From: a virus
Lineage: Duplodnaviria; Heunggongvirae; Uroviricota; Caudoviricetes
DNA length: 64,000 nucleotides
IMG/VR virus record: IMGVR_UViG_3300021256_000003
Coordinates: 1 to 64,000 of that record
Strand: one strand, 5' to 3'
The notes below the pieces were generated by a model that was not told where the DNA came from, did no database searches, and worked only from the letters and a program-made list of their open reading frames with translations. A program made the position numbers and the translations under genes. Position 1 is the first letter of the stretch, and every line of letters starts with the position of its first letter. This document shows positions 4,032-20,155 of the stretch, one piece after another.

Positions 4032-4430
4032 GGGGATGACGTGGTTTTGACAGTAATTACAGAAGTATATAAGCATGTAGACCTCAATACTAAGCAAGTC
4101 TTAAAACTACTGGTAAATAAATTTAATTGGCAATAGCCATCGTAACATCATCAGCCTCTATAACGAGAGAAAAGCTGCCTGACCTGAAGAACAGTAAGGA
4201 TCAAGGACCTAATTTTATTAAGAATAGTTATCGCTTAATATATTATTAGGTTTGATAAGGTTAAAGGATAATTTGCAATTGTAATCTATCCGAATTATAA
4301 TTAAAGATTAGGATGTAGTATAAATGAATTTTGTTAATTTGCTAGTTTATACGAAACACTAAAATTAACTAAACATGTAGAAAGTATATCATGAATTATT
4401 TGGACTCGGGTTCGACTCCCGACATCTCCA
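4032..4430 (+). ncRNA. ssrA: tmRNA (ssrA), phage-encoded
   Basis: 5' end GGGGATGACGTGGTTTTGACAG compared with E. coli GGGGCTGATTCTGGATTCGACGGG. 3' tRNA-like domain GGACTCGGGTTCGACTCCCGACATCTCCA compared with E. coli GGACGCGGGTTCAACTCCCGCCAGCTCCACCA. Acceptor GGGGATG/CATCTCC includes a G3:U70 wobble, which is the alanine identity element. An internal tag-like frame ...NIISLYNERKAA ends at TGA 4180-4182. Confidence 0.8.
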
Positions 4431-4451
4431 CTAATAAAAAAAATAAAAAAA

Positions 4452-4685
4452 ATGATCACAATCAGTAAAATTGGAAACAATCCTAAAGAAGTTGGTGTAT
4501 GCCACACTGTTGAGGAAGCTAATACTTTATTAGATTCTCAACCAGAAATAAAGAATTCATTATATCAGCGAATAATGGAAGCTGAAGATGGTCTTATGAT
4601 AGATTATGGTAGCCATAATACTTTCTTTTTAATAAAAGGAGTTAATTATAAAGAATTTATACAAAAATTTAAGGGTAATGGGTAA
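4452..4685 (+). CDS. hypothetical protein
   Basis: 77 aa ORF. Confidence 0.4.
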   Translation: MITISKIGNNPKEVGVCHTVEEANTLLDSQPEIKNSLYQRIMEAEDGLMIDYGSHNTFFLIKGVNYKEFIQKFKGNG

Positions 4686-5202
4686 TATATTCTTTACATC
4701 AGACCCACACTTTGGACATATTAATTTACAAAAGAGTCTTCGTGGATTTGAATCTGATGAACTAATTATAGAAAATTGGAATAAAGTAGTACGTAGTAAA
4801 AAGGATAGAGTTTATGTTCTTGGCGATTTTTGTATGCAAAAACCATCTGTTATTCGAGCAATTTTGCCAAAATTAAAAGGCGAAATTATTTTAATAGGCG
4901 GAAATCATGATAATTTACCTTGTAGTCGAGAATTTATGAGACAAGGTATTCCTATTATAGGATCACTAAATCTTCATGACCTTATATTTACGCATATTCC
5001 AATTCATCCTACTCAACTTGAATTTGGATTAAAAGGAAATGTTCATGGACATATTCACGTTGAAGGAAATATAGAAGGAAGAAAATATGCCCCACAAACT
5101 ATCACTGATCCTCGATATTTTAATGTAAATCTTGAATTTCATAACTATCAATTAGTTTCAATTGATACTATTGATAAATATTATCAACAATTAAATAAAT
5201 AA
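4678..5202 (+). CDS. calcineurin-like metallophosphoesterase
   Basis: Motifs SDPHFGH, VLGDFC and GGNHDN correspond to GDxHG / GDxxDRG / GNHE. Confidence 0.7.
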   Translation: MGNIFFTSDPHFGHINLQKSLRGFESDELIIENWNKVVRSKKDRVYVLGDFCMQKPSVIRAILPKLKGEIILIGGNHDNLPCSREFMRQGIPIIGSLNLHDLIFTHIPIHPTQLEFGLKGNVHGHIHVEGNIEGRKYAPQTITDPRYFNVNLEFHNYQLVSIDTIDKYYQQLNK

Positions 5203-5702: not shown

Positions 5703-6139
5703 TGGATAATCTTGACTGGATTACTAGATTGAATGGGTTATGTAAATCTCTTGATCAGGTTTACCGAATTAACAGTGGTGGTTGTGCAAAAGTAGCTTAT
5801 TATATAGCAAAGGAATTACATAAGCAACATATACCCTATGCTATAAAGGTTTATTTTGGAAACGATTTAACAAAAAAAGATAAACGTAAATTATCTAAAA
5901 CAGGACCTTTTAATAGTACAATTGATAAATATTATTGGACACATTTAGCTATTGTAGTTCAAAATAAGACAATTAATAGCTATTTTAGTAATTCTTATGT
6001 TGTCATAAATACTCCACATGATCTTCGATGGTTAAAGGCTTTTATAGATAATCATGAGTTTAATCCAATTTATGGAACTTCTAATAATCATATTGTTAAA
6101 TCTTACATTAAAGAATTTTTTAAAAATAATATAATATGA
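5702..6139 (+). CDS. hypothetical protein
   Basis: 145 aa ORF. Confidence 0.4.
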   Translation: MDNLDWITRLNGLCKSLDQVYRINSGGCAKVAYYIAKELHKQHIPYAIKVYFGNDLTKKDKRKLSKTGPFNSTIDKYYWTHLAIVVQNKTINSYFSNSYVVINTPHDLRWLKAFIDNHEFNPIYGTSNNHIVKSYIKEFFKNNII

Positions 6140-6957
6140 GTAGCGGTAAAGTAAAAGGAGTACAATATTACTCCAAAATTAATACTTGCTTCAAACGCGA
6201 TATGGATCACTCATCTAAGTTTTATAATTGTATCCAGCCAAACGAAACTTTATCAACTCCAGAATTGGATTATTTTAGAAAGGTTGGATTAAAATTTGAA
6301 GCAACAGAAAAAATTGATGGTGAATGCACATCAATTCATCTGATTCCTCATGTAAACTGTCAAGGACAAACTTGGAAGGATATTGCAGGTAATGAACATT
6401 GGGTTATTGATCATTATACCGTAGAAGTTCATGGTAAGACTAGTGCTGCTTCTATGAGAACGGAAGAAGTAGAACTTCTCCAAAAGATAGGAGATCTTGG
6501 TACTCTTCTTAGTATTTTCTCACAAAAGAAAACAATAACTAACGGTGAACAAACTCAAGATGTGGTATTACCTCCGGAGTCTGAAATTATCATCTTCGGA
6601 GAAACTTATGGTAAGAGAATGCAGAAAGTTGGAAATCGATATGATTCTCAAAAATTAAATTTTATCTGTTTTGATATAAAAATAGGTAATATTTGGTTAA
6701 TGAGGGATTCAATTGAAGATATTTGTAATAAACTAAATATTCAAGCAGTTCCGTTTATAGGAATGTTTACTATTGATGAAGCTATTGAATATGTAAGAAA
6801 AGGTTTTAAATCTACAATTAGCGAAGATTCAACTCTTGAAGCTGAAGGTTTGGTGCTAAAAGCTCCACTTGGTATTCTTACTCGTCTTGGAGGACGTATT
6901 ATTACTAAGATAAAAACTAAAGATTTTCAGGATTTGGAACGTGCTACTAACAGTTAA
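6136..6957 (+). CDS. ATP-dependent RNA ligase (nucleotidyltransferase superfamily)
   Basis: Motif I KIDG (ATEKIDGECTSIH), motif IV EGLVLK and motif V ITKIKTK. Its 273 aa length and the presence of a separate DNA ligase favour an RNA ligase. Confidence 0.55.
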   Translation: MSSGKVKGVQYYSKINTCFKRDMDHSSKFYNCIQPNETLSTPELDYFRKVGLKFEATEKIDGECTSIHLIPHVNCQGQTWKDIAGNEHWVIDHYTVEVHGKTSAASMRTEEVELLQKIGDLGTLLSIFSQKKTITNGEQTQDVVLPPESEIIIFGETYGKRMQKVGNRYDSQKLNFICFDIKIGNIWLMRDSIEDICNKLNIQAVPFIGMFTIDEAIEYVRKGFKSTISEDSTLEAEGLVLKAPLGILTRLGGRIITKIKTKDFQDLERATNS

Positions 6958-6960
6958 TTT

Positions 6961-7656
6961 ATGGAAAAGAAAACTTCAATAACAGTTAGTGCGTTTTCTG
7001 ATTTGCATGGAAATCTCATTAACATCCCTGAATGCGATTTAGCTTTTATGTGTGGAGATTTCTCTCCAGTACAATATGATCGTAATTTAATAGCAGTCGC
7101 AATGTGGATACAGAATTTTATGATTCCTTGGCTTAAAGAGCAAAAGAAAAATTACGATAAATTTATCTTTATTGCAGGGAATCATGATTTCATTTGTGAA
7201 TCTGAAGAATGGAAAGACTGGTTTCAAAATCAGTTAAAAGAAAATGGTCTTGGAGACTCTGTAATTTATTTAGAGGATTCAACTTATAACTATAAAGGAA
7301 TTGACATTTATGGATGTCCTCATTCAGAGATATATGGTTGGGCTTTCTACAGTGGAGATTATAAGGATTACATTCCATCTCCCCAAGCTGACATTATGTT
7401 AGTTCATGCCGCACCAAATATTGGAGGATTAGGAGATACAATACTAGGAGGTTATCCTAGATCATTTGGATCTAATTGTCTTGTAAATGGAATCACTACT
7501 CCTTGTTTAAATCTTCAATATCTATTTTGTGGACACATTCATGGAGGAAGTCATAGACCTTACAAACATGAGAATATCACTATGTATAATGTTTCTATCC
7601 TTGATGAACAATATCAAGTACATTATGAACCTTTAACTACGTCATTATGCTTTTAG
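6961..7656 (+). CDS. calcineurin-like metallophosphoesterase
   Basis: Motifs SDLHGN, CGDFS, IAGNHDF and GHIHGG. Confidence 0.65.
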   Translation: MEKKTSITVSAFSDLHGNLINIPECDLAFMCGDFSPVQYDRNLIAVAMWIQNFMIPWLKEQKKNYDKFIFIAGNHDFICESEEWKDWFQNQLKENGLGDSVIYLEDSTYNYKGIDIYGCPHSEIYGWAFYSGDYKDYIPSPQADIMLVHAAPNIGGLGDTILGGYPRSFGSNCLVNGITTPCLNLQYLFCGHIHGGSHRPYKHENITMYNVSILDEQYQVHYEPLTTSLCF

Positions 7657-8969: not shown

Positions 8970-9638
8970 ATGAAACTTTTAATAGTTCCTGATGTTCACG
9001 GACGTGATTTCTGGATAAAACCTTGTAGAGACATTAAAAAGTATGATAAAATCATATTTCTTGGTGATTATCACGATCCGTATCCTTTTCAAGTAAGTGA
9101 ACATACATCTCGTCAACGTTTAAGAGAAGATTTAGTACCATTTGTTGAAGACAATAAGGACAAAATAATATGTTTAAAGGGTAATCACGATTGTTCTTAT
9201 ACGATAGGGATTATGGCAGATCGTCATGATCGTTATAATCATAATAAAATTAAGAACCTTCTTGAGAGAATGAATTTAAAACTATCTTACAAAATAGACA
9301 ATTTCTTATTTACTCATTCTGGTGTATTACCAGAGTGGTTAGAAAGGAATAATCTTACTTTAGAAGATGTTTTGAATGATAATATTTCTGAGCAAGCATT
9401 GTCTCAAGTATCTCCGAATCGAGGAGGATGGGATGATTGTGGAAGTTGTATTTGGGGAGATGTTAGAGAATATGCTCTTTCTCAAAAAATTTCAGGAATT
9501 TATCAAATTTTTGGACATACTATGTTATATCCAGATTTTAATCCCATTATAACAGAAGAATTTGCATGTCTTGACACAATGAATTGTTATTCGTTGGATA
9601 CTGAAATTGGATATACATCATTAACAAAAATCGATTAA
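8970..9638 (+). CDS. calcineurin-like metallophosphoesterase (Ser/Thr phosphatase-like)
   Basis: Motifs VPDVHGRD, LGDYHD and KGNHD. This is the third paralogous metallophosphoesterase in a 5 kb stretch. Confidence 0.7.
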   Translation: MKLLIVPDVHGRDFWIKPCRDIKKYDKIIFLGDYHDPYPFQVSEHTSRQRLREDLVPFVEDNKDKIICLKGNHDCSYTIGIMADRHDRYNHNKIKNLLERMNLKLSYKIDNFLFTHSGVLPEWLERNNLTLEDVLNDNISEQALSQVSPNRGGWDDCGSCIWGDVREYALSQKISGIYQIFGHTMLYPDFNPIITEEFACLDTMNCYSLDTEIGYTSLTKID

Positions 9639-10547: not shown

Positions 10548-11294
10548 ATGGCTTGGTATACAGGTGCTAATAAGTGTATTTATTCTTGTTCAGGTGCAAT
10601 TGAACTCCCTTTGAAACAACGTGTATGTTTTGCAGACGCCTTTCGCTGCTTATATACTGATAGAAAAAGCACAGTTGATTATAAAATCTATATAGCTCAA
10701 TTTGATAAAGGTTCAGCTTCTAATTTTTGTACACCTGAAGAAATAAAATACACTTTAAATAAATTAAGAAGAATAGTTCCATTTTCTTTTAAACTTGACT
10801 TTGCTCCTCATACTTTTGATAGACAGCCTTACGGAGTTCTTAATCTTCACATTGAAGGAGATAAATTAACTCACAAAATGATCTTAACGTTTACTCGTTG
10901 TTTCTTTGAATATCCATCTAATGTAGCGGCTAGAGAAGCAATAGATGTATATCCGGAAATTATAAAAAGGTTAAGAGTAGGAAATTCTATTAGTTGGTTT
11001 AATGTTTTCATTACAATTGAATCGTGTTGTGTCGCAAGAGGCGGAGGACATACTTTTACGTGCTCTTATCAACCTGATTCTCCTCTGTTTACTACAGATG
11101 AAATGATTAATCGAATTCATGATAATCCAGGTATTAGTCTTAATAATTTCTTCGGATGTGGAAATGAGCGACTAAAACATGATGATTATGAATTTCCAAA
11201 TACTATGGAAAAACTTACTAACGGAAAACTAATTGAAAAACGAATTCAACATTATGTTGAATTATTAAAAACAAAATTACAATGGCTGAGATAA
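10548..11294 (+). CDS. hypothetical protein
   Basis: 248 aa ORF. Confidence 0.45.
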   Translation: MAWYTGANKCIYSCSGAIELPLKQRVCFADAFRCLYTDRKSTVDYKIYIAQFDKGSASNFCTPEEIKYTLNKLRRIVPFSFKLDFAPHTFDRQPYGVLNLHIEGDKLTHKMILTFTRCFFEYPSNVAAREAIDVYPEIIKRLRVGNSISWFNVFITIESCCVARGGGHTFTCSYQPDSPLFTTDEMINRIHDNPGISLNNFFGCGNERLKHDDYEFPNTMEKLTNGKLIEKRIQHYVELLKTKLQWLR

Positions 11295-11929
11295 AAGTTT
11301 ATGTAGTGGGTTATTCAACTAATTATGCAAATTGGATTAAAGACCACGTATTAGTTGATAAACTAGAAGATGCGAATATAGTTCTTTTTACCGGAGGCGA
11401 AGATGTAGATCCTTCTTTATATGGTCATGAAAATGTACGTTCTTATACAAATAAAGATCGTGATCTTAAAGAGAAAGCTATCTTTGAGCAAATGAGTCAG
11501 TCTCAACTTGCTTTAGGTATTTGTAGAGGATCTCAATTACTATGTTGCCTCAACGGTGGTAAACTATTCCAAGATGTGACCAATCATGCTATAGGTCGTA
11601 CTCATCAAATTACAGATGGTAGTCGTATACTAGAAATAACATCGACTCATCATCAAATGCAGTGTCCTTTTAATCTTCCTTCAAAGACATATCGCATATT
11701 ATGGACTACTCCTGAGCGTTTAAGTAGTCGTTATGCATGGGGAGGTACGGAAGATAGAATAATTCCTCCTTGTGAACCGGAGATTGTTGAGTATCATGTA
11801 AAAGACAAACCAATCAGTCTTGCTATTCAAGGGCATCCAGAGATGATGCGAATGACAAGTCCGACAATCAATGAATTAAATAAATTAGTTAGATCATGCT
11901 TAAAACACATAGAATCACAGAGTTTCTGA
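11282..11929 (+). CDS. class I glutamine amidotransferase-like / gamma-glutamyl hydrolase (peptidase C26) family
   Basis: Catalytic Cys motif LALGICRGSQLL and a C-terminal His-Glu motif IQGHPE. Confidence 0.65.
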   Translation: MAEIKVYVVGYSTNYANWIKDHVLVDKLEDANIVLFTGGEDVDPSLYGHENVRSYTNKDRDLKEKAIFEQMSQSQLALGICRGSQLLCCLNGGKLFQDVTNHAIGRTHQITDGSRILEITSTHHQMQCPFNLPSKTYRILWTTPERLSSRYAWGGTEDRIIPPCEPEIVEYHVKDKPISLAIQGHPEMMRMTSPTINELNKLVRSCLKHIESQSF

Positions 11930-12714
11930 TAGGAACTGATCCTGAATTGTTCCTTGTAAGTCAGAAAACAGGTAAAGTAAAATCAGCAGTACGAGTTATT
12001 CCTGGAACTAAAGAACATCCCCATAAGATTAAAGAATTTGGTGATGGATTTGCTGTACAGACTGATAATATTTTGGCAGAGTTTAATGTTCCGCCAGTTA
12101 ATTCCCAAGAAGCATTCGTTCATAATATTATGAGAATGCAACAACACATTAAAGAAATGGCACAAGCGAAGAATCCTGACTTAGATATTAAGTGTATGGC
12201 TAGTGCGCATGTACCGAAGAGCGAATTACGCAGCAAACAAGCAAAATTGTTTGGCTGTGATCCTGACTACAATATCTATACTGGTGAACAAAATGAAATA
12301 CAGCGTATTCCTGAGAGTGATTTACGTTCAGCTGGATTTCATTTGCATCTAGGATATAACAATAATAATATAGATAATTCAATGAATATATTGTTTTATC
12401 TTGACTTTTATTTAGGAGTTCCTAGTGTACTTATTGATCCCGATACTGAAAGAAGATCACTCTATGGTAAAGCTGGATGTTTCCGACTTACTTCTTATGG
12501 TCTTGAATATCGTAGTCTTTCATCATATATGATGAAAGATGAAAAACATTTAAGATGGATTTGGGATCAAACTATACAAGCAATACAGGCTTATAATCAT
12601 GGTGTAGCACTTCCTGAAGCTAGACATGTTGTTAATTGTATTAATAATAATGATCAAAAGTTAGCTCGAGATCTCTGCAAATATTATAAACTATGTGTGG
12701 ATTGTTTGGAATAG
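11896..12714 (+). CDS. carboxylate-amine ligase, GCS2 (YbdK-like) family
   Basis: N-terminal LIGTDPELFLV (GxExEFxLV-like) and AGFHLHLGY (GxHVHVG-like). Confidence 0.5.
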   Translation: MLKTHRITEFLIGTDPELFLVSQKTGKVKSAVRVIPGTKEHPHKIKEFGDGFAVQTDNILAEFNVPPVNSQEAFVHNIMRMQQHIKEMAQAKNPDLDIKCMASAHVPKSELRSKQAKLFGCDPDYNIYTGEQNEIQRIPESDLRSAGFHLHLGYNNNNIDNSMNILFYLDFYLGVPSVLIDPDTERRSLYGKAGCFRLTSYGLEYRSLSSYMMKDEKHLRWIWDQTIQAIQAYNHGVALPEARHVVNCINNNDQKLARDLCKYYKLCVDCLE

Positions 12715-13949
12715 TAAGTTCTTCTCCAAGAACTTTAGATTTAAGAGCGTTTTGTACGCTCGGTGTTATGAATGATTCTAGAGGAGGTGATTCTTGTGGT
12801 ATCTCTCTCGATGGTAATATTGAATATGGTTTTGGTAAAGAAAGTGCTCTTTTTATCGATTTTATGAGAGTTTCCAAAACATTATTTAAACGGAATCGAA
12901 TCAAAGTAGCATTAGGACATTGTCGTAAAGCTTCTGTCGGAGGAGTTACCCTAGAGAAAGCACAGCCAGTTAAAGTCTTTGATAAAGATGGAAATCTTAG
13001 TATGATCGTTATTCATAATGGAACTATTCATAATTATCAAGACTTAGCCGATAGGTATCTTCCTGGAGAAGATATTTCTGATTTATCTGATTCTCAAGTT
13101 ATGGCTCGGATTTTTCAGAAAGGTCATTATTCGGTGTTGAAAGAATATCGAGGTGGTGGAGCTTTTGTTATTCATGACTTAAAGAAAAATACTGTTTATC
13201 TGTTTAAAGGAGCATCTAAAGCTACTGAATATGCTAAAGAAATTACTGAAGAAAGACCTCTTTTCTGTTGCTATGATAAAGATGCTTTTATTTTTAGTTC
13301 TTTAGCGTATCCATTAGTTGGATTATATCCTAAGAACAAAATCTATCGTATTCCTTGTAATACTCTTTATAAAGTTCATAATGGTAGACTTGTTAAACTT
13401 GAGGTTTTAGATAGGTCTGAATGTTTGCAAAGTAAACCTACAGTTGTAACTGTTAATTCTTATTCTGGCTTCTATCAAGACAGATATATTGATTTTAATG
13501 TTAAAACTGGACGTTATAAGTTAGGAAAGAATTATCTTACCGGAGAACAATTCTTTTCTGACTATGGATATCATTATGATATAAAGAGTCAATGGGCTAA
13601 TTCTTATTGGTTCTGGGGAGGATATATGCTTCCTGGACAGAAATCTTATGAAGCTGTACTTAAATATAGTACAGAGTGCAAGGATCCTCAAAAGGCATTA
13701 CAACTTGCAAAAGCATTAACTTATCTTCCATTTGATGAAAAGGGGTGCTGGATGGAATCCTATGAAGATGGTTCTTTTCATGTTGTAAAAGACAATAAGG
13801 TATCATTTCCTTTGAGTAGGAACGAACTGCATATTAAGAATGGTAGAGCTGTTATGACTTCATATTTGAGTACAATGGATGCTACTGTTTTTAATGATTT
13901 ATCTGATGATATGATTCAAAAAATTGTAAACAATGTATGCCGTAAATGA
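12693..13949 (+). CDS. class II (Ntn) glutamine amidotransferase domain protein
   Basis: N-terminal MCGLFG nucleophile and NDSRGGDSCG, corresponding to HRGPDxxG. Confidence 0.65.
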   Translation: MCGLFGIVSSSPRTLDLRAFCTLGVMNDSRGGDSCGISLDGNIEYGFGKESALFIDFMRVSKTLFKRNRIKVALGHCRKASVGGVTLEKAQPVKVFDKDGNLSMIVIHNGTIHNYQDLADRYLPGEDISDLSDSQVMARIFQKGHYSVLKEYRGGGAFVIHDLKKNTVYLFKGASKATEYAKEITEERPLFCCYDKDAFIFSSLAYPLVGLYPKNKIYRIPCNTLYKVHNGRLVKLEVLDRSECLQSKPTVVTVNSYSGFYQDRYIDFNVKTGRYKLGKNYLTGEQFFSDYGYHYDIKSQWANSYWFWGGYMLPGQKSYEAVLKYSTECKDPQKALQLAKALTYLPFDEKGCWMESYEDGSFHVVKDNKVSFPLSRNELHIKNGRAVMTSYLSTMDATVFNDLSDDMIQKIVNNVCRK

Positions 13950-15141
13950 ACTTACAAGAAGATTTGAAGATTATTCAAGTTTAGTTAGATGTGCTGTGGC
14001 ATATGAGAATGGTATTATAGAATTTGGCTACGTTAATCCGAAAGAGAACTTATGTGTGTATTGCTATGATGATCATGGAAAGTTTTTAGCTAGATATAAT
14101 TCTTTAAAAGACTGTTTGAACTTTAATAGAGAATATGGTATATATACTTTTGATAAGGTTCCTAATGCAAACATTTATGCTGCTGGAAATTTTCCATATA
14201 CTTTTACTAAATACTATAATACTCGATTTTTGAGTGATACTTTTCAGAAATGGCAAGAAAATTACCATAGCATTCAGTTTAAATATGCTGACGAAATGCC
14301 TTATACTTTTGGGTTAGAATTTGAGACTAGTGGAGGATATATTCCAGAGCATGAACTATTTAATTTAGGATTAATTCCTTTAAGAGACGGTTCTATTAGA
14401 GGTCTTGAATATTCTACAATTGTATTAAAGGGGCAACAAGGATTAAACACTCTATACGAAATGACTAAATGTTTGCGTAAATATACAATCTTTGATAAAG
14501 AGTGTTCGTTACACATTCATTTAGGCAATTGGAAACTTGATGAATCTACTATTTTAAAGCTGAATAATTTATTTAGTTCAGCTTCTTTAGGACAATATCT
14601 CCCAAGAGATACTTATAATACTGAACGATATAAAGCAACTGGTAAGAGCTATTGTAAGAAGAATGCTAGCTACAGTACTTTTAATGATTTGTATCGTTCT
14701 TTAGTAGGTAGATCTTATTATGGAGATCTGTATCAACCTCATCCTGATGATACTAATGGAACTAGAAAATGGAATATTCATTCAAGATATAAGGCATTGA
14801 ATCTTATAAATGCTTTATGTTACAATTTTGGTAAAACTGCAGAATTTAGAATATTGAGGCCGACTTATAATTTTGATAAAATTATTTGTTGGTTATATGT
14901 TTTCGCTGCGTTTATCAAATATGCCGAAAATGGATATCGAGTGACTACTTCTGTTGATAAGATTCTTGAAAGAGTTTACTCTCCAGAACTTGCTACTATT
15001 CTTAAACAGTTCTTAAAATTAGAACAAGAGGTAGTAGATAAGCAAACAAATAACGGAGACTATATTGGTGCAGATATTTCATTAGAAGACTCAATTATCA
15101 CTAAAGAGAACTTATCTCCTGATAACAATTTCTTCTATTAA
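13933..15141 (+). CDS. hypothetical protein, co-operonic with the amidotransferase/ligase genes
   Basis: 402 aa ORF whose start overlaps the upstream gene. Confidence 0.5.
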   Translation: MYAVNELTRRFEDYSSLVRCAVAYENGIIEFGYVNPKENLCVYCYDDHGKFLARYNSLKDCLNFNREYGIYTFDKVPNANIYAAGNFPYTFTKYYNTRFLSDTFQKWQENYHSIQFKYADEMPYTFGLEFETSGGYIPEHELFNLGLIPLRDGSIRGLEYSTIVLKGQQGLNTLYEMTKCLRKYTIFDKECSLHIHLGNWKLDESTILKLNNLFSSASLGQYLPRDTYNTERYKATGKSYCKKNASYSTFNDLYRSLVGRSYYGDLYQPHPDDTNGTRKWNIHSRYKALNLINALCYNFGKTAEFRILRPTYNFDKIICWLYVFAAFIKYAENGYRVTTSVDKILERVYSPELATILKQFLKLEQEVVDKQTNNGDYIGADISLEDSIITKENLSPDNNFFY

Positions 15142-15338: not shown

Positions 15339-15683
15339 ATGAAATCATACATAATTTTCTTAGATGATATAAGAGATCCTGATTCTAATTATGGTATTTC
15401 AACGGTTACAAATAGAAATGAAATTATAGTTATTAGAAATTCTAATGAATTTGAAGCATTTCTTAAAAATGCAATTAATAACCATTTAAAAATAACTCAA
15501 GTTATGTTTGACCATGATTTAGGGTTAAATTCAAAAGATGGTTATGAATGCTTAAAATGGATGCTTAATTATATGAAGGATAATTCATATCCAATACCTT
15601 TAGTTACTTGTCATTCGAGTAATCCAGTAGGACGAGATAATATATTATCCTACTATAATAACTTTAAAAAATATAATACTTAA
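15339..15683 (+). CDS. hypothetical protein (weak receiver-domain-like pattern)
   Basis: 114 aa with an IIFLDD...D..G pattern; weak evidence. Confidence 0.35.
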   Translation: MKSYIIFLDDIRDPDSNYGISTVTNRNEIIVIRNSNEFEAFLKNAINNHLKITQVMFDHDLGLNSKDGYECLKWMLNYMKDNSYPIPLVTCHSSNPVGRDNILSYYNNFKKYNT

Positions 15684-15687
15684 TATT

Positions 15688-16155
15688 ATGCTTAAAGATA
15701 CAATTGATAATGATATACAATCTGCAATCAAATCTAATGCTGAAGAGTATAAAATTAATACTTTGCGTGCTATTAAGACCGAGCTTTTAAATACAGAGAA
15801 AGGTATTGGAGGCAAAAAGCCAACTACAATTACTGATGTTATTGAAGTTAGTGTCCTTAATAAAATGTGCAAGGAGCGTAAAGAAAGTGCTGACCAATAT
15901 CGAAAAGGTGGAAGAGAAGATCTAGCTATTAATGAAGAGAAAGAAATTTCTATTATTAAAACTTATCTTCCAGAAATGCCTTCTGATGTGGAAGTTATAA
16001 GTTATATATCATCGTGTATAGAAAATTTAGCAAAAGAGCATCAAATTTCTTCTCGCGATACTGGTACTATTTTGAAATCTGTTAAAGAAAAGTATCCATT
16101 TATTAATGGAAAATTAGTTTCAGATACTATTGCAGCTTACGTTAAATCTCACTAA
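15688..16155 (+). CDS. GatB/YqeY domain protein
   Basis: ESADQYRKGGREDLAINEEKEISIIKTYLPEMPS...GKLVSD closely matches the YqeY/GatB C-terminal domain consensus. Confidence 0.75.
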   Translation: MLKDTIDNDIQSAIKSNAEEYKINTLRAIKTELLNTEKGIGGKKPTTITDVIEVSVLNKMCKERKESADQYRKGGREDLAINEEKEISIIKTYLPEMPSDVEVISYISSCIENLAKEHQISSRDTGTILKSVKEKYPFINGKLVSDTIAAYVKSH

Positions 16156-16966: not shown

Positions 16967-17048
16967 GCAGGCATGGCGTAATTGGTAGCCGCGCAAGAAT
17001 TAGAATCTTGTTCTGAGAGGAGTGGGGGTTCGAGTCCCCCTGCCTGCA
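16967..17048 (+). tRNA. tRNA-Leu (anticodon TAG), class II
   Basis: Acceptor GCAGGCA/TGCCTGC, anticodon stem CAAGA/TCTTG with loop ATTAGAA, long variable arm, T arm GGGGG-TTCGAGT-CCCCC. Confidence 0.8.
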
Positions 17049-17146
17049 CATTACTATCATGAAGAATGGTTCGTCTGCACAAACAGGGGAGTAGTAAAAT
17101 TCTGCGGTAATGATATCCCTAATTTAACCCATTAGGGATTAATATG

Positions 17147-17229
17147 TCGAGTTGCTAGAGTGGTCGAATAGGGTAGTCTGCAAAACTATCGGTGAATAGC
17201 CCACATTGGTTCGAATCCAATACTCGACT
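17147..17229 (+). tRNA. class II (Ser-like) tRNA with anticodon GCA (Cys codons); isotype uncertain
   Basis: Acceptor GTCGAGT/ACTCGAC, 3-bp D stem with Ser-like D loop AGTGGTCGAA, anticodon stem GTAGT/ACTAT with loop CTGCAAA, 15-nt variable arm, T arm ATTGG-TTCGAAT-CCAAT. Confidence 0.6.
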
Positions 17230-17305
17230 CTCAGTAAGACTGTTGTAGATAATTAATTAGATTAGATTAAATTTAACTTTTAATTAATTAAAAAAAATAA
17301 ATCAA

Positions 17306-17995
17306 ATGAAGAAAATCACAAGTATTTTTATGGTACTGACTGTGGCTATGTGCATGATGTTTACTGCTTGTAATGGTTGTAGCCAGAAAAATGAACCTGT
17401 TAATGAGATTACTTATCCCGTGGCTGGTTTAAATGTGGAACGTGTTACCGCCACTGACTTTGAGTACATGACTGCCAACTATGGTAATGACTATCGTTGG
17501 TACGAATGCTGTATCGATGCTAAAGATTGGATTGATGAAAGCGATACATTCTATGTCAACGGTATTGCCAACGTATTCTATAAGGTGTATTTCAATGAGG
17601 ATAGTACGTCTGGTACTGCAAAGGTATATCTGCTTGCACACGTTGGTGATGTATTTACTATTGACTCGACAGAGGGTATTTGGGTTGGTGATGAGCCTAT
17701 GAACGAATTTAATCCTATGAAGATTAATTTTGCTCAAGCTTATGATGCGATGATGAGAACAAATTGTATTAAACCTCATAGTCGTCACTGTGTCCTTCGT
17801 AAGGAACTTGGCCCTCTAGACGCTGCTCCTCAATATATCTTTGGTAATCAAGAGATTCAAGTATATGTGGATGCCCAGAATGGCAGTGTAAATGTTGACA
17901 ACCCAGTGTTTCCTGTGGATGCTAATGACATTCCCGCTGATCGTTCTGAGAATGACAGCACTCTAAAGAAACTAGGCTACGCATTTAGTTGGTAA
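17306..17995 (+). CDS. lipoprotein (moderately GC-rich)
   Basis: Signal peptide plus lipobox MMFTAC. Elevated GC relative to neighbours. Confidence 0.55.
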   Translation: MKKITSIFMVLTVAMCMMFTACNGCSQKNEPVNEITYPVAGLNVERVTATDFEYMTANYGNDYRWYECCIDAKDWIDESDTFYVNGIANVFYKVYFNEDSTSGTAKVYLLAHVGDVFTIDSTEGIWVGDEPMNEFNPMKINFAQAYDAMMRTNCIKPHSRHCVLRKELGPLDAAPQYIFGNQEIQVYVDAQNGSVNVDNPVFPVDANDIPADRSENDSTLKKLGYAFSW

Positions 17996-18027: not shown

Positions 18028-18104
18028 GTATCCGTAGCTCAGCTGGTATTTAGAGCACAGGATTTTTAATCCTGGAGTCGTGGGTTCGAACCCCACCGGA
18101 TACA
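18028..18104 (+). tRNA. tRNA-Lys (anticodon TTT)
   Basis: Acceptor GTATCCG/CGGATAC, anticodon stem CAGGA/TCCTG with loop TTTTTAA, T arm GTGGG-TTCGAAC-CCCAC. Confidence 0.85.
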
Positions 18105-18113
18105 CTAACTAAT

Positions 18114-20070: not shown

Positions 20071-20141
20071 TGGAGTGTAGTTTAGAGGTAAAATGTCGCT
20101 CTCCAAAAGCGAAGTCGGGGGTTCGATTCCCTCCACTCCTG
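20071..20141 (+). tRNA. tRNA-Trp (anticodon CCA)
   Basis: Acceptor (T)GGAGTG/CACTCCT, anticodon stem TCGCT/AGCGA with loop CTCCAAA, T arm GGGGG-TTCGATT-CCCTC. Confidence 0.7.
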
Positions 20142-20155
20142 CTAAATTTTAGGAA

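Follow-up and report, generated by a model that had tools for sequence, protein, structure and literature searches.

A phage tRNA with a cysteine anticodon and a class II-shaped body: a probable tRNA-Cys of an apparently undescribed family

According to textbook rules, a long variable arm is confined to tRNA-Leu, tRNA-Ser, bacterial tRNA-Tyr, and tRNA-Sec. Exceptions known so far, the allo-tRNAs, nev-tRNAs, and selC* tRNAs, are rare, and most of them are mischarged or specialised. We analysed a tRNA gene with a long variable arm and the Cys anticodon GCA, located at positions 17146 to 17229 (plus strand) of a 64,000-nucleotide stretch of a Caudoviricetes genome (IMG/VR record IMGVR_UViG_3300021256_000003, positions 1 to 64,000; hereafter the window). 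An earlier note on this DNA had described a Ser-like tRNA that was expected to insert Ser or Leu at UGU and UGC codons, either as a deliberate device for sabotage or recoding or as a decaying gene. That the gene is unusual holds by textbook rules. We consider it probable, from the elements present in its sequence, that it encodes a functional tRNA-Cys on a class II-shaped body. The long arm, the 3-bp D stem, and the 11-nt D loop are a conserved trait of a large family of phage tRNA-Cys and not the remnant of a Ser identity.

The selC* tRNA-Cys have a long variable arm, U73, and the anticodon GCA, as does the window tRNA. They are cysteinylated by cysteinyl-tRNA synthetase (CysRS) and function in translation (Mukai et al. 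2017, PMC5389517), and thus provide a precedent for the acceptance of a long arm by this enzyme. Their acceptor/T branch is 8/4, often with an A51a bulge, their D arm resembles that of tRNA-Sec, and their anticodon stem is longer; some have the anticodon UCA and dedicated SelB*/CysRS* partners. Their hosts are anaerobic bacteria (PMC5389517). The window tRNA, in contrast, is phage-encoded and has a plain 7/5 cloverleaf, the D arm of which is of Ser/Tyr type. Allo-tRNAs, some of them in phages, are class II-like and carry many non-Ser anticodons, but they have an 8/4 or 9/3 branch and, through the variable arm together with G73 or U73, a Ser identity regardless of the anticodon, and many are inactive or tied to toxin-antitoxin loci (PMC5389517). 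The comparison with allo-tRNAs that the earlier note had proposed separated the two groups, since the window tRNA and its family have a 7/5 branch and a discriminator base (nucleotide 73) that tracks the anticodon. Nematode nev-tRNAs, the textbook case of mischarging, combine a class II body with a Gly or Ile anticodon; 115 of 115 keep the Leu discriminator A73 regardless of the anticodon, and they are leucylated (Hamashima et al. 2012, PMC3333845). The window family has the Cys discriminator U73.

Bacterial tRNA-Tyr is also of class II, and its identity resides in the anticodon and the discriminator, not in the arm. It has the same arm geometry as the window tRNA but differs by A73, U35, and the anticodon GUA, one base from GCA. 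TyrRS relies on A73 and U35, in place of which the window tRNA has U73 and C35. Canonical class I tRNA-Cys shares GCA, U73, and G1:C72 with the window tRNA and differs by its short variable region (4–6 nt in the class I tRNA-Cys of phages versus 15 nt). Finally, tRNA-Ser(GCU) shares with it the D-arm sequence, the overall size, and G15:C48, and its anticodon loop differs by one base; unlike the window tRNA, it has G73, G2:C71, A3:U70, a longer variable stem, and 1–2 unpaired 3' bases.

ARAGORN found 11 tRNAs and 1 tmRNA in the window, among them a tRNA-Cys (gca) at 17146-17230. The Rfam model RF00005 matched 17146-17229 over its whole length (model positions 1-71 of 71) with 52.8 bits (cut-off 29; E = 1.3e-9), and a covariance model of the family described below (R1) gave 87.6 bits. 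Nucleotide 1 is G17146, so that the start proposed previously (17147) was one base late, and the intact tRNA of 84 nt (nucleotides 1-73 in standard numbering) has a 7/5 branch. CCA is not encoded; CTC comes directly after the gene. The two strands of the acceptor stem, GUCGAGU (17146-17152) and ACUCGAC (17222-17228), form 7 Watson-Crick pairs, including G1:C72, U2:A71, and C3:G70, and all 7 covary across the family. U8 and G9 lie between this stem and the D arm (17155-17171), which is of class II type, as seen in the sequence and the Rfam alignment: its 3-bp stem CUA/UAG is formed by C10-G25, U11-A24, and A12-U23, G13 and A22 are unpaired, and the 11-nt loop GAGUGGUCGAA contains A14, G15, G18G19, C20a, and G20b. 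G26 precedes the anticodon arm (17173-17189), which has the stem GUAGU/ACUAU and the 7-nt loop C32 U33 G34 C35 A36 A37 A38; the anticodon GCA (17180-17182) reads UGC and UGU. Some ordinary 73-nt phage tRNA-Cys genes have an identical 19-nt anticodon arm.

The 15-nt variable region CGGUGAAUAGCCCAC (17190-17204) consists of the unpaired C44, a 3-bp stem (G17191-C17201, G17192-C17200, and the wobble pair U17193.G17199), the loop GAAUA, and an unpaired 3' CAC that ends in C48, the partner of G15. It is followed by the T arm (17205-17221; AUUGG-UUCGAAU-CCAAU, with a 5-bp stem, in agreement with RF00005). The discriminator, at 17229, is U73, which is neither the G73 of tRNA-Ser nor the A73 of tRNA-Leu and tRNA-Tyr. 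The usual invariant bases are complete (U8, A14, G18G19, U33, G53, U54U55C56, A58, and C61). The tRNA has the features that define a class II architecture: a stem-loop in a variable region of 10 nt or more, a D stem of 3 bp, and an enlarged D loop with positions 20a and 20b. Sequence, ARAGORN, and RF00005 thus confirmed the class II shape and the anticodon GCA in the loop CUGCAAA, and the D stem, the D loop, and the length of the variable region were also as the earlier note had described. Its remark that the anticodon loop is one substitution away from the Ser GCU loop was correct as well; the Tyr GUA loop is likewise one substitution away.

The same 85 bases occurred with 100% identity in an independent assembly (L389; Logan SRR28623929). 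The latter comes from a diverged relative, as the neighbouring protein is 92% identical to that of the window and the flanks differ by 2 substitutions and 1 indel. This indicates that the anticodon GCA is not a sequencing or base-calling error, and it ruled out a true tRNA-Ser(GCU) hidden by such an error, which had been named as a possible refutation. The other one, an alternative fold as a canonical class I tRNA-Cys, was ruled out because ARAGORN, Rfam, and the family model all gave the long-arm cloverleaf and because 84 nt is too long for a class I fold. An 8/4 branch is impossible, since U8 has no partner for an eighth pair.

We searched IMG/VR for related genes with the pattern CTGCAAA-N23-32-GGTTCRAWTCC. 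At least 120 loci matched, and the counts that follow are among the matches listed. A 7/5 tRNA(GCA) with intact stems and a variable region of 15–22 nt was present in 68 of 120 loci, corresponding to 57 distinct long-armed tRNA(GCA) sequences, including that of the window. U73 was kept in 55 of these 57, as would be expected under selection by CysRS and not under selection by SerRS. Covariation was tested on a 19-sequence alignment, in which we specified the cloverleaf: 96% of the cells were paired, and the covariation score was 0.913, compared with 0.229 after shuffling and at most 0.16 when the partners were slid. All five helices covaried, with double-sided changes at all four variable-stem pairs, and the variable-arm hairpins of the family averaged 3.98 bp versus 3.09 ± 0.10 in shuffled sequences. 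In the closest distinct homologue listed, on a 178-kb phage contig (L099), a compensatory A-U pair replaces the first G-C pair of the variable stem. The cloverleaf predicted for the window tRNA is thus supported by covariance models and by covariation in the family.

When the scan was opened to short as well as long variable regions, about 101 phage tRNA-Cys were sampled, of which about 86 were of class I and about 15 had a variable region of at least 11 nt; the length ran continuously from 4 to 24 nt. Among the 120 matches listed for the long-arm pattern in GTDB, 99 were not tRNAs. The tRNA matches were mostly 8/4 genes of the selC* or allo-tRNA kind, mainly either of selC* type (Desulfacinum, Desulfomonile, and Syntrophobacteraceae), with acceptors starting GGGGGCA and 4-bp T stems, or from Acidobacteria. 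Only 2 were clean 7/5 cases, one of which was identical to a phage family member. The Prevotella megaphage Lak-A1, whose record is unannotated, has a related gene (L495:2489-2569), which ARAGORN called as an 81-nt tRNA-Cys; its D arm is the same, and its variable region has 11 nt. In full-text literature searches, which did not cover most subscription journals, we found no description of a 7/5 long-armed phage tRNA-Cys or, more generally, of long-armed phage tRNAs with a class I identity. The window gene is an ordinary member of a widespread and apparently undescribed family.

We then compared the identity elements of these tRNAs with those of 63 tRNA-Ser, 40 tRNA-Tyr, 55 tRNA-Leu, and class I tRNA-Cys measured in the phage loci that we had fetched. 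The major determinants for CysRS are U73 and G34C35A36, and U73 alone suffices in minihelices (PMC9976931). The window tRNA has GCA, U73, and G1:C72. U73 was found in 76 of 77 class I phage tRNA-Cys, in which the 2:71 and 3:70 pairs are variable, as they are in the long-armed family. On this basis, the window tRNA would be transcribed together with the neighbouring tRNAs of its array, processed by the host, and completed by post-transcriptional addition of CCA. It would be charged with cysteine by the host CysRS through U73 and G34-C35-A36; the enzyme should tolerate the long variable arm, as Cys identity does not rest on that region. It would then decode UGU and UGC in the phage genes, with A37 in the context A36-A37-A38. 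The phage genes in the window contain 285 Cys codons, of which 82% are UGU.

Several observations weigh against a functional tRNA-Cys. The D arm is of Ser type, including G20b. SerRS reads the shape and not the anticodon, and in E. coli G73 contributes only moderately to recognition. U73 was present in 10 of the 63 phage tRNA-Ser of the sampled loci (viral loci L025-L144), so that U73 by itself does not exclude serylation. The Levitt pair G15:G48, a determinant of the E. coli and H. influenzae type, is replaced by G15:C48; this determinant is restricted to few species, and its absence is therefore not disqualifying for Cys identity. The long-armed copy is not always the sole supplier, since 17 of the 68 loci also have a class I tRNA-Cys. 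Taken as a single copy, the variable stem is not distinctive, as shuffling its 15 nt yielded an equally good hairpin in 60% of shuffles. Finally, for the AU-rich D and anticodon halves, ViennaRNA favoured pairings other than those of the cloverleaf (-23.9 versus -16.3 kcal/mol for the cloverleaf).

The first three of these observations also count in favour of the prediction made in the earlier note, that SerRS or LeuRS would recognise the class II shape and cause Ser or Leu to be inserted at UGU and UGC, be it for sabotage or for recoding; in a variant of it, a dual Cys/Ser identity would make decoding ambiguous. Mischarging of class II tRNAs with foreign anticodons does occur, as allo-tRNAs and nev-tRNAs show, and the tRNA-Ser profile was the second-best match to the window tRNA (see below). 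The identity elements oppose this prediction, which had overlooked the discriminator U73. Most bacterial tRNA-Ser conserve G1:C72 and G2:C71, and G73 contributes to recognition by SerRS. In the phage tRNA-Ser, G2:C71 was present in 62 of 63, A3:U70 in 54 of 63, and G73 in 52 of 63. The window tRNA lacks all three, as well as C11:G24, and has U2:A71, C3:G70, U73, and U11:A24 in their place. G2:C71 was found in only 13 of the 57 long-armed tRNA(GCA) (p = 7e-20 for the difference from tRNA-Ser) and G73 in none of the 57 listed. The variable arm differs too: in phage tRNA-Ser its stem is mostly of 5–7 bp with 1–2 unpaired 3' bases, and 3 or more bases are unpaired on the 3' side in only 2 of 63, versus 40 of 57 long-armed tRNA(GCA) (p = 7e-16); a 3-bp stem followed by 3 unpaired bases, as in the window tRNA, likewise occurs in 2 of 63. 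The term Ser-like thus holds for the D-arm sequence but not for the elements that SerRS is known to use. As a separate observation, the phage tRNA-Ser that carry U73 keep G1 G2 A3, as exemplified by the tRNA-Ser(GCU) of locus L116.

With respect to leucylation, A73 is crucial for LeuRS and A15:U48 is needed. The phage tRNA-Leu of the sampled loci had A73 in 55 of 55 and U48 in 55 of 55 cases, while the window tRNA has U73 and G15:C48 and scored only 4–9 bits with the tRNA-Leu profile.

The genomic setting also argues against mischarging. In two complete 20-isotype arrays (L049, with 29 tRNAs, and L138, with 36 tRNAs), the long-armed tRNA is the only tRNA-Cys and is accompanied by normal Ser, Leu, and Tyr tRNAs. 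Insertion of Ser or Leu would hurt the phage's own Cys-dependent enzymes: its NrdD depends on a CxxC...CxxC zinc site and on further cysteines, each of them specified by a UGY codon, so that a Ser-inserting tRNA would harm the phage itself. Taking these data together with the retention of U73 in the family and the discriminators of other long-armed tRNAs (see below), we regard charging with Ser or Leu as very unlikely; deliberate sabotage or recoding is not supported and is a minority reading.

The other proposal was that of a decaying gene, in which the anticodon of a former tRNA-Ser(GCU) or tRNA-Tyr(GUA) has mutated and the sequence is drifting. It draws on the single substitution that separates the loop from either of these, on the fast turnover of tRNA arrays in this phage group, and on the weak variable stem and unfavourable thermodynamics of the cloverleaf mentioned above. 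The helices are perfect, though, with a full set of invariant bases; an identical copy persists in the diverged relative L389; and the family, which is large and old, shows compensatory changes and conserves U73. There was likewise no support for a recent origin by remoulding of another tRNA gene in the same genome, be it Ser, Tyr, or a further long-armed one, since no family member was close to such a gene in its own genome (highest identity within a locus, 0.71; mean, about 0.60). Decay is therefore extremely unlikely.

Long arms were not confined to tRNA-Cys. The sampled loci also contained long-armed Asn, Asp, Thr, Val, Ile, Lys, Met, Pro, Arg, Glu, Gly, and Trp tRNAs. In 100 of 106 long-armed tRNAs with a class I anticodon, Cys included, the discriminator was the one typical of the isotype of the anticodon (G for Asn, Asp, and Trp; U for Thr, Gly, and Cys; A for Val, Ile, Lys, and Pro). 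Individual examples are the tRNA-Asn(GUU) of phiKZ (L392:1191-1277; NC_004629 269557-269645), which has 87 nt, a 15-nt variable region, and G73; the 88-nt tRNA-Lys(CUU) of Rhodobacter phage RcXuper (L391:1495-1582); and, in a relative of the window phage (L001), a tRNA-Asp(GUC) with a 17-nt variable region and G73, located at the site of the window tRNA-Cys (L001:5850-5936), and a tRNA-Lys(UUU) with a 5-bp variable stem and A73 (L001:6909-6995). GenBank thus already holds long-armed phage tRNAs, plainly annotated as 'tRNA-Asn' or 'tRNA-Lys'. These identity elements, as read from the sequences, argue for correct charging of the long-armed phage tRNAs. We also noted a long-armed tRNA-Arg(UCU) of 88 nt at L099:5594-5681. 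At L001:4209-4297, a tRNA-like gene has normal acceptor, D, and T arms but was called tRNA-??? (gctg) by ARAGORN; its anticodon arm is one continuous hairpin, CUGGCCCU...AGGGCCGG around CUGUA-GAUUA-UACAG, without a 7-nt loop.

The textbook exception is therefore common here, since about 1 in 7 of the sampled phage tRNA-Cys is armed and sister cases exist in at least 12 other isotypes, including that of phiKZ. Class I or II shape and amino-acid identity would be separable far more freely than assumed, which calls for caution when pipelines take an odd anticodon on a class II body as a sign of recoding or mistranslation. These tRNAs also form a natural test set for the tolerance of CysRS, AsnRS, ThrRS, and other synthetases toward an extra arm, and could be useful in the design of orthogonal tRNAs.

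A different question is whether, Cys identity being granted, the class II body is itself adaptive, as a means to escape host nucleases that target tRNAs or the depletion of host tRNAs by the phage itself, as a handle for a phage factor, or because the tRNA serves mainly as a decoy and less as a supplier. The uneven distribution of the 7/5 form (68 of 120 viral versus 2 of 120 GTDB matches listed) and the recurrence of the same shape in many isotypes, including the tRNA-Asn of phiKZ, would fit this idea. So would the genes of the window phage for an RNA ligase, phosphoesterases, a cREC domain, a YqeY-like protein, and a tmRNA, which relate to RNA repair and translation rescue. Defence systems that cut tRNAs are documented, some of them cutting the variable loop. 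This support is circumstantial, and the continuous range of lengths from 4 to 24 nt fits a neutral expansion equally well. Furthermore, the phage tRNA escape variants known so far act via the anticodon loop, which counts against a role of the arm. We consider an adaptive body unlikely. A broader proposal is that phages systematically keep class II-shaped Cys (above all), Asn, Asp, Thr, Val, Ile, Lys, Met, and Pro tRNAs with a normal synthetase identity, the arm marking them or protecting them from tRNA-cleaving defence nucleases of the host or from the destruction that the phage itself inflicts on host tRNAs; this seems doubtful to us. If the arm is protective, it would represent a new move in the conflict between phages and hosts over tRNAs.

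The genes related to RNA repair lie beside the tRNA array, at 4678-5202, 6136-6957, 6961-7656, 8970-9638, 15339-15683, and 15688-16155 of the window, and comprise an RNA ligase (PF09414), three calcineurin-like phosphoesterases, a cREC_REC domain, and a YqeY-like protein. The phage tmRNA is at 4032-4431 and has the tag peptide GNSHRNIISLYNERKAA. Together they suggest that tRNA damage matters to this phage; a link to the arm is conjecture.

To look into the origin of the probable tRNA-Cys, we scored it with whole-molecule profile hidden Markov models. The long-armed Cys profile ranked first (48 bits), followed by Ser (37), class I Cys (28), Tyr (10), and then Leu. When the variable arm was removed and an unbiased set of class I Cys was used, the Ser and class I Cys profiles scored about equally. 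The exact D-arm string GCTAGAGTGGYCGAATAGG was found in 106 metagenomic tRNAs, of which 100 were tRNA-Ser and 6 long-armed tRNA(GCA); among ordinary class I phage tRNA-Cys, 38 of 77 likewise had a 17-nt D arm with a 3-bp stem. The arm of the 40 phage tRNA-Tyr (1 unpaired base, 3 bp, 3 unpaired bases) has exactly the geometry of the window tRNA. In L099 (2304-2679, minus strand), class II-shaped Tyr(GUA), Ser(UGA), Ser(GCU), and Cys(GCA) genes stand in tandem, both Ser genes with G1 G2 A3 and G73, and the Cys gene with G1 U2 A3 and U73. The family may have arisen either by expansion of the variable loop within a tRNA-Cys lineage, which would fit the length continuum and the shared acceptor-stem statistics, or by remoulding of a tRNA-Ser(GCU) or a tRNA-Tyr(GUA), which would fit the D arm, the arm geometry, and the L099 cluster.

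The window lies on a contig of 174,954 bp (ENA ERZ28612970, scaffold_112) from a rumen-type metagenome. The phage has a GC content of 31% and encodes NrdD, a DNA polymerase, a ligase, and a helicase. Its DNA polymerase and the product of a lipoprotein-like open reading frame (ORF) close to the tRNA were compared with cultured phages, and none was more than 35% identical. The other class II tRNA of the array, a tRNA-Leu(UAG) found by ARAGORN and Rfam (16967-17049, plus strand), lies 96 nt upstream of the tRNA-Cys. The lipoprotein-like ORF (17306-17995), which is conserved among relatives, is downstream of both. The tRNAs upstream of this ORF differ completely from one genome to another. They are Leu and Cys in the window (16967-17230); Phe and the long-armed Asp in L001 (5769-5936), the sole close relative in IMG/VR, whose neighbouring protein is 86% identical; and His, Ser, Gly and Gly, Thr, respectively, in L385 (2747-3362) and L388 (82-328). 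Contigs with 75–76% identical homologues of the neighbouring protein also carry different tRNAs. The tRNA array beside the lipoprotein-like ORF thus turns over very fast. As to the conservation of GCA in related phages, which the earlier note had proposed to check, the gene is identical in L389, while the near relative L001 carries other tRNAs at that site; beyond L389, the comparison covered distant members of the family.

A scan for promoters and terminators around the tRNA-Cys gene found nothing above background. A perfect 9-bp inverted repeat (ATCCCTAAT / ATTAGGGAT, with the loop TTAACCC) is present at 17115-17139 and ends 6 nt upstream of the tRNA-Cys; L389 keeps its stem, with a single change in the loop. 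The repeat may serve as a signal for processing or termination. Elsewhere in the window, the region 11282-15141 encodes a peptidase C26/GATase, a phiEco32-like COOH-NH2 ligase, a class II glutamine amidotransferase-like protein, and an amidoligase, and looks like a module for the modification of peptides or metabolites. Two further tRNAs deviate from the usual form: the tRNA-Lys(UUU) at 18028-18105 has 78 nt and an enlarged D loop, and in the tRNA-Trp(CCA) at 20071-20142 the first acceptor pair, U1 with U72, was flagged as non-standard by Rfam.

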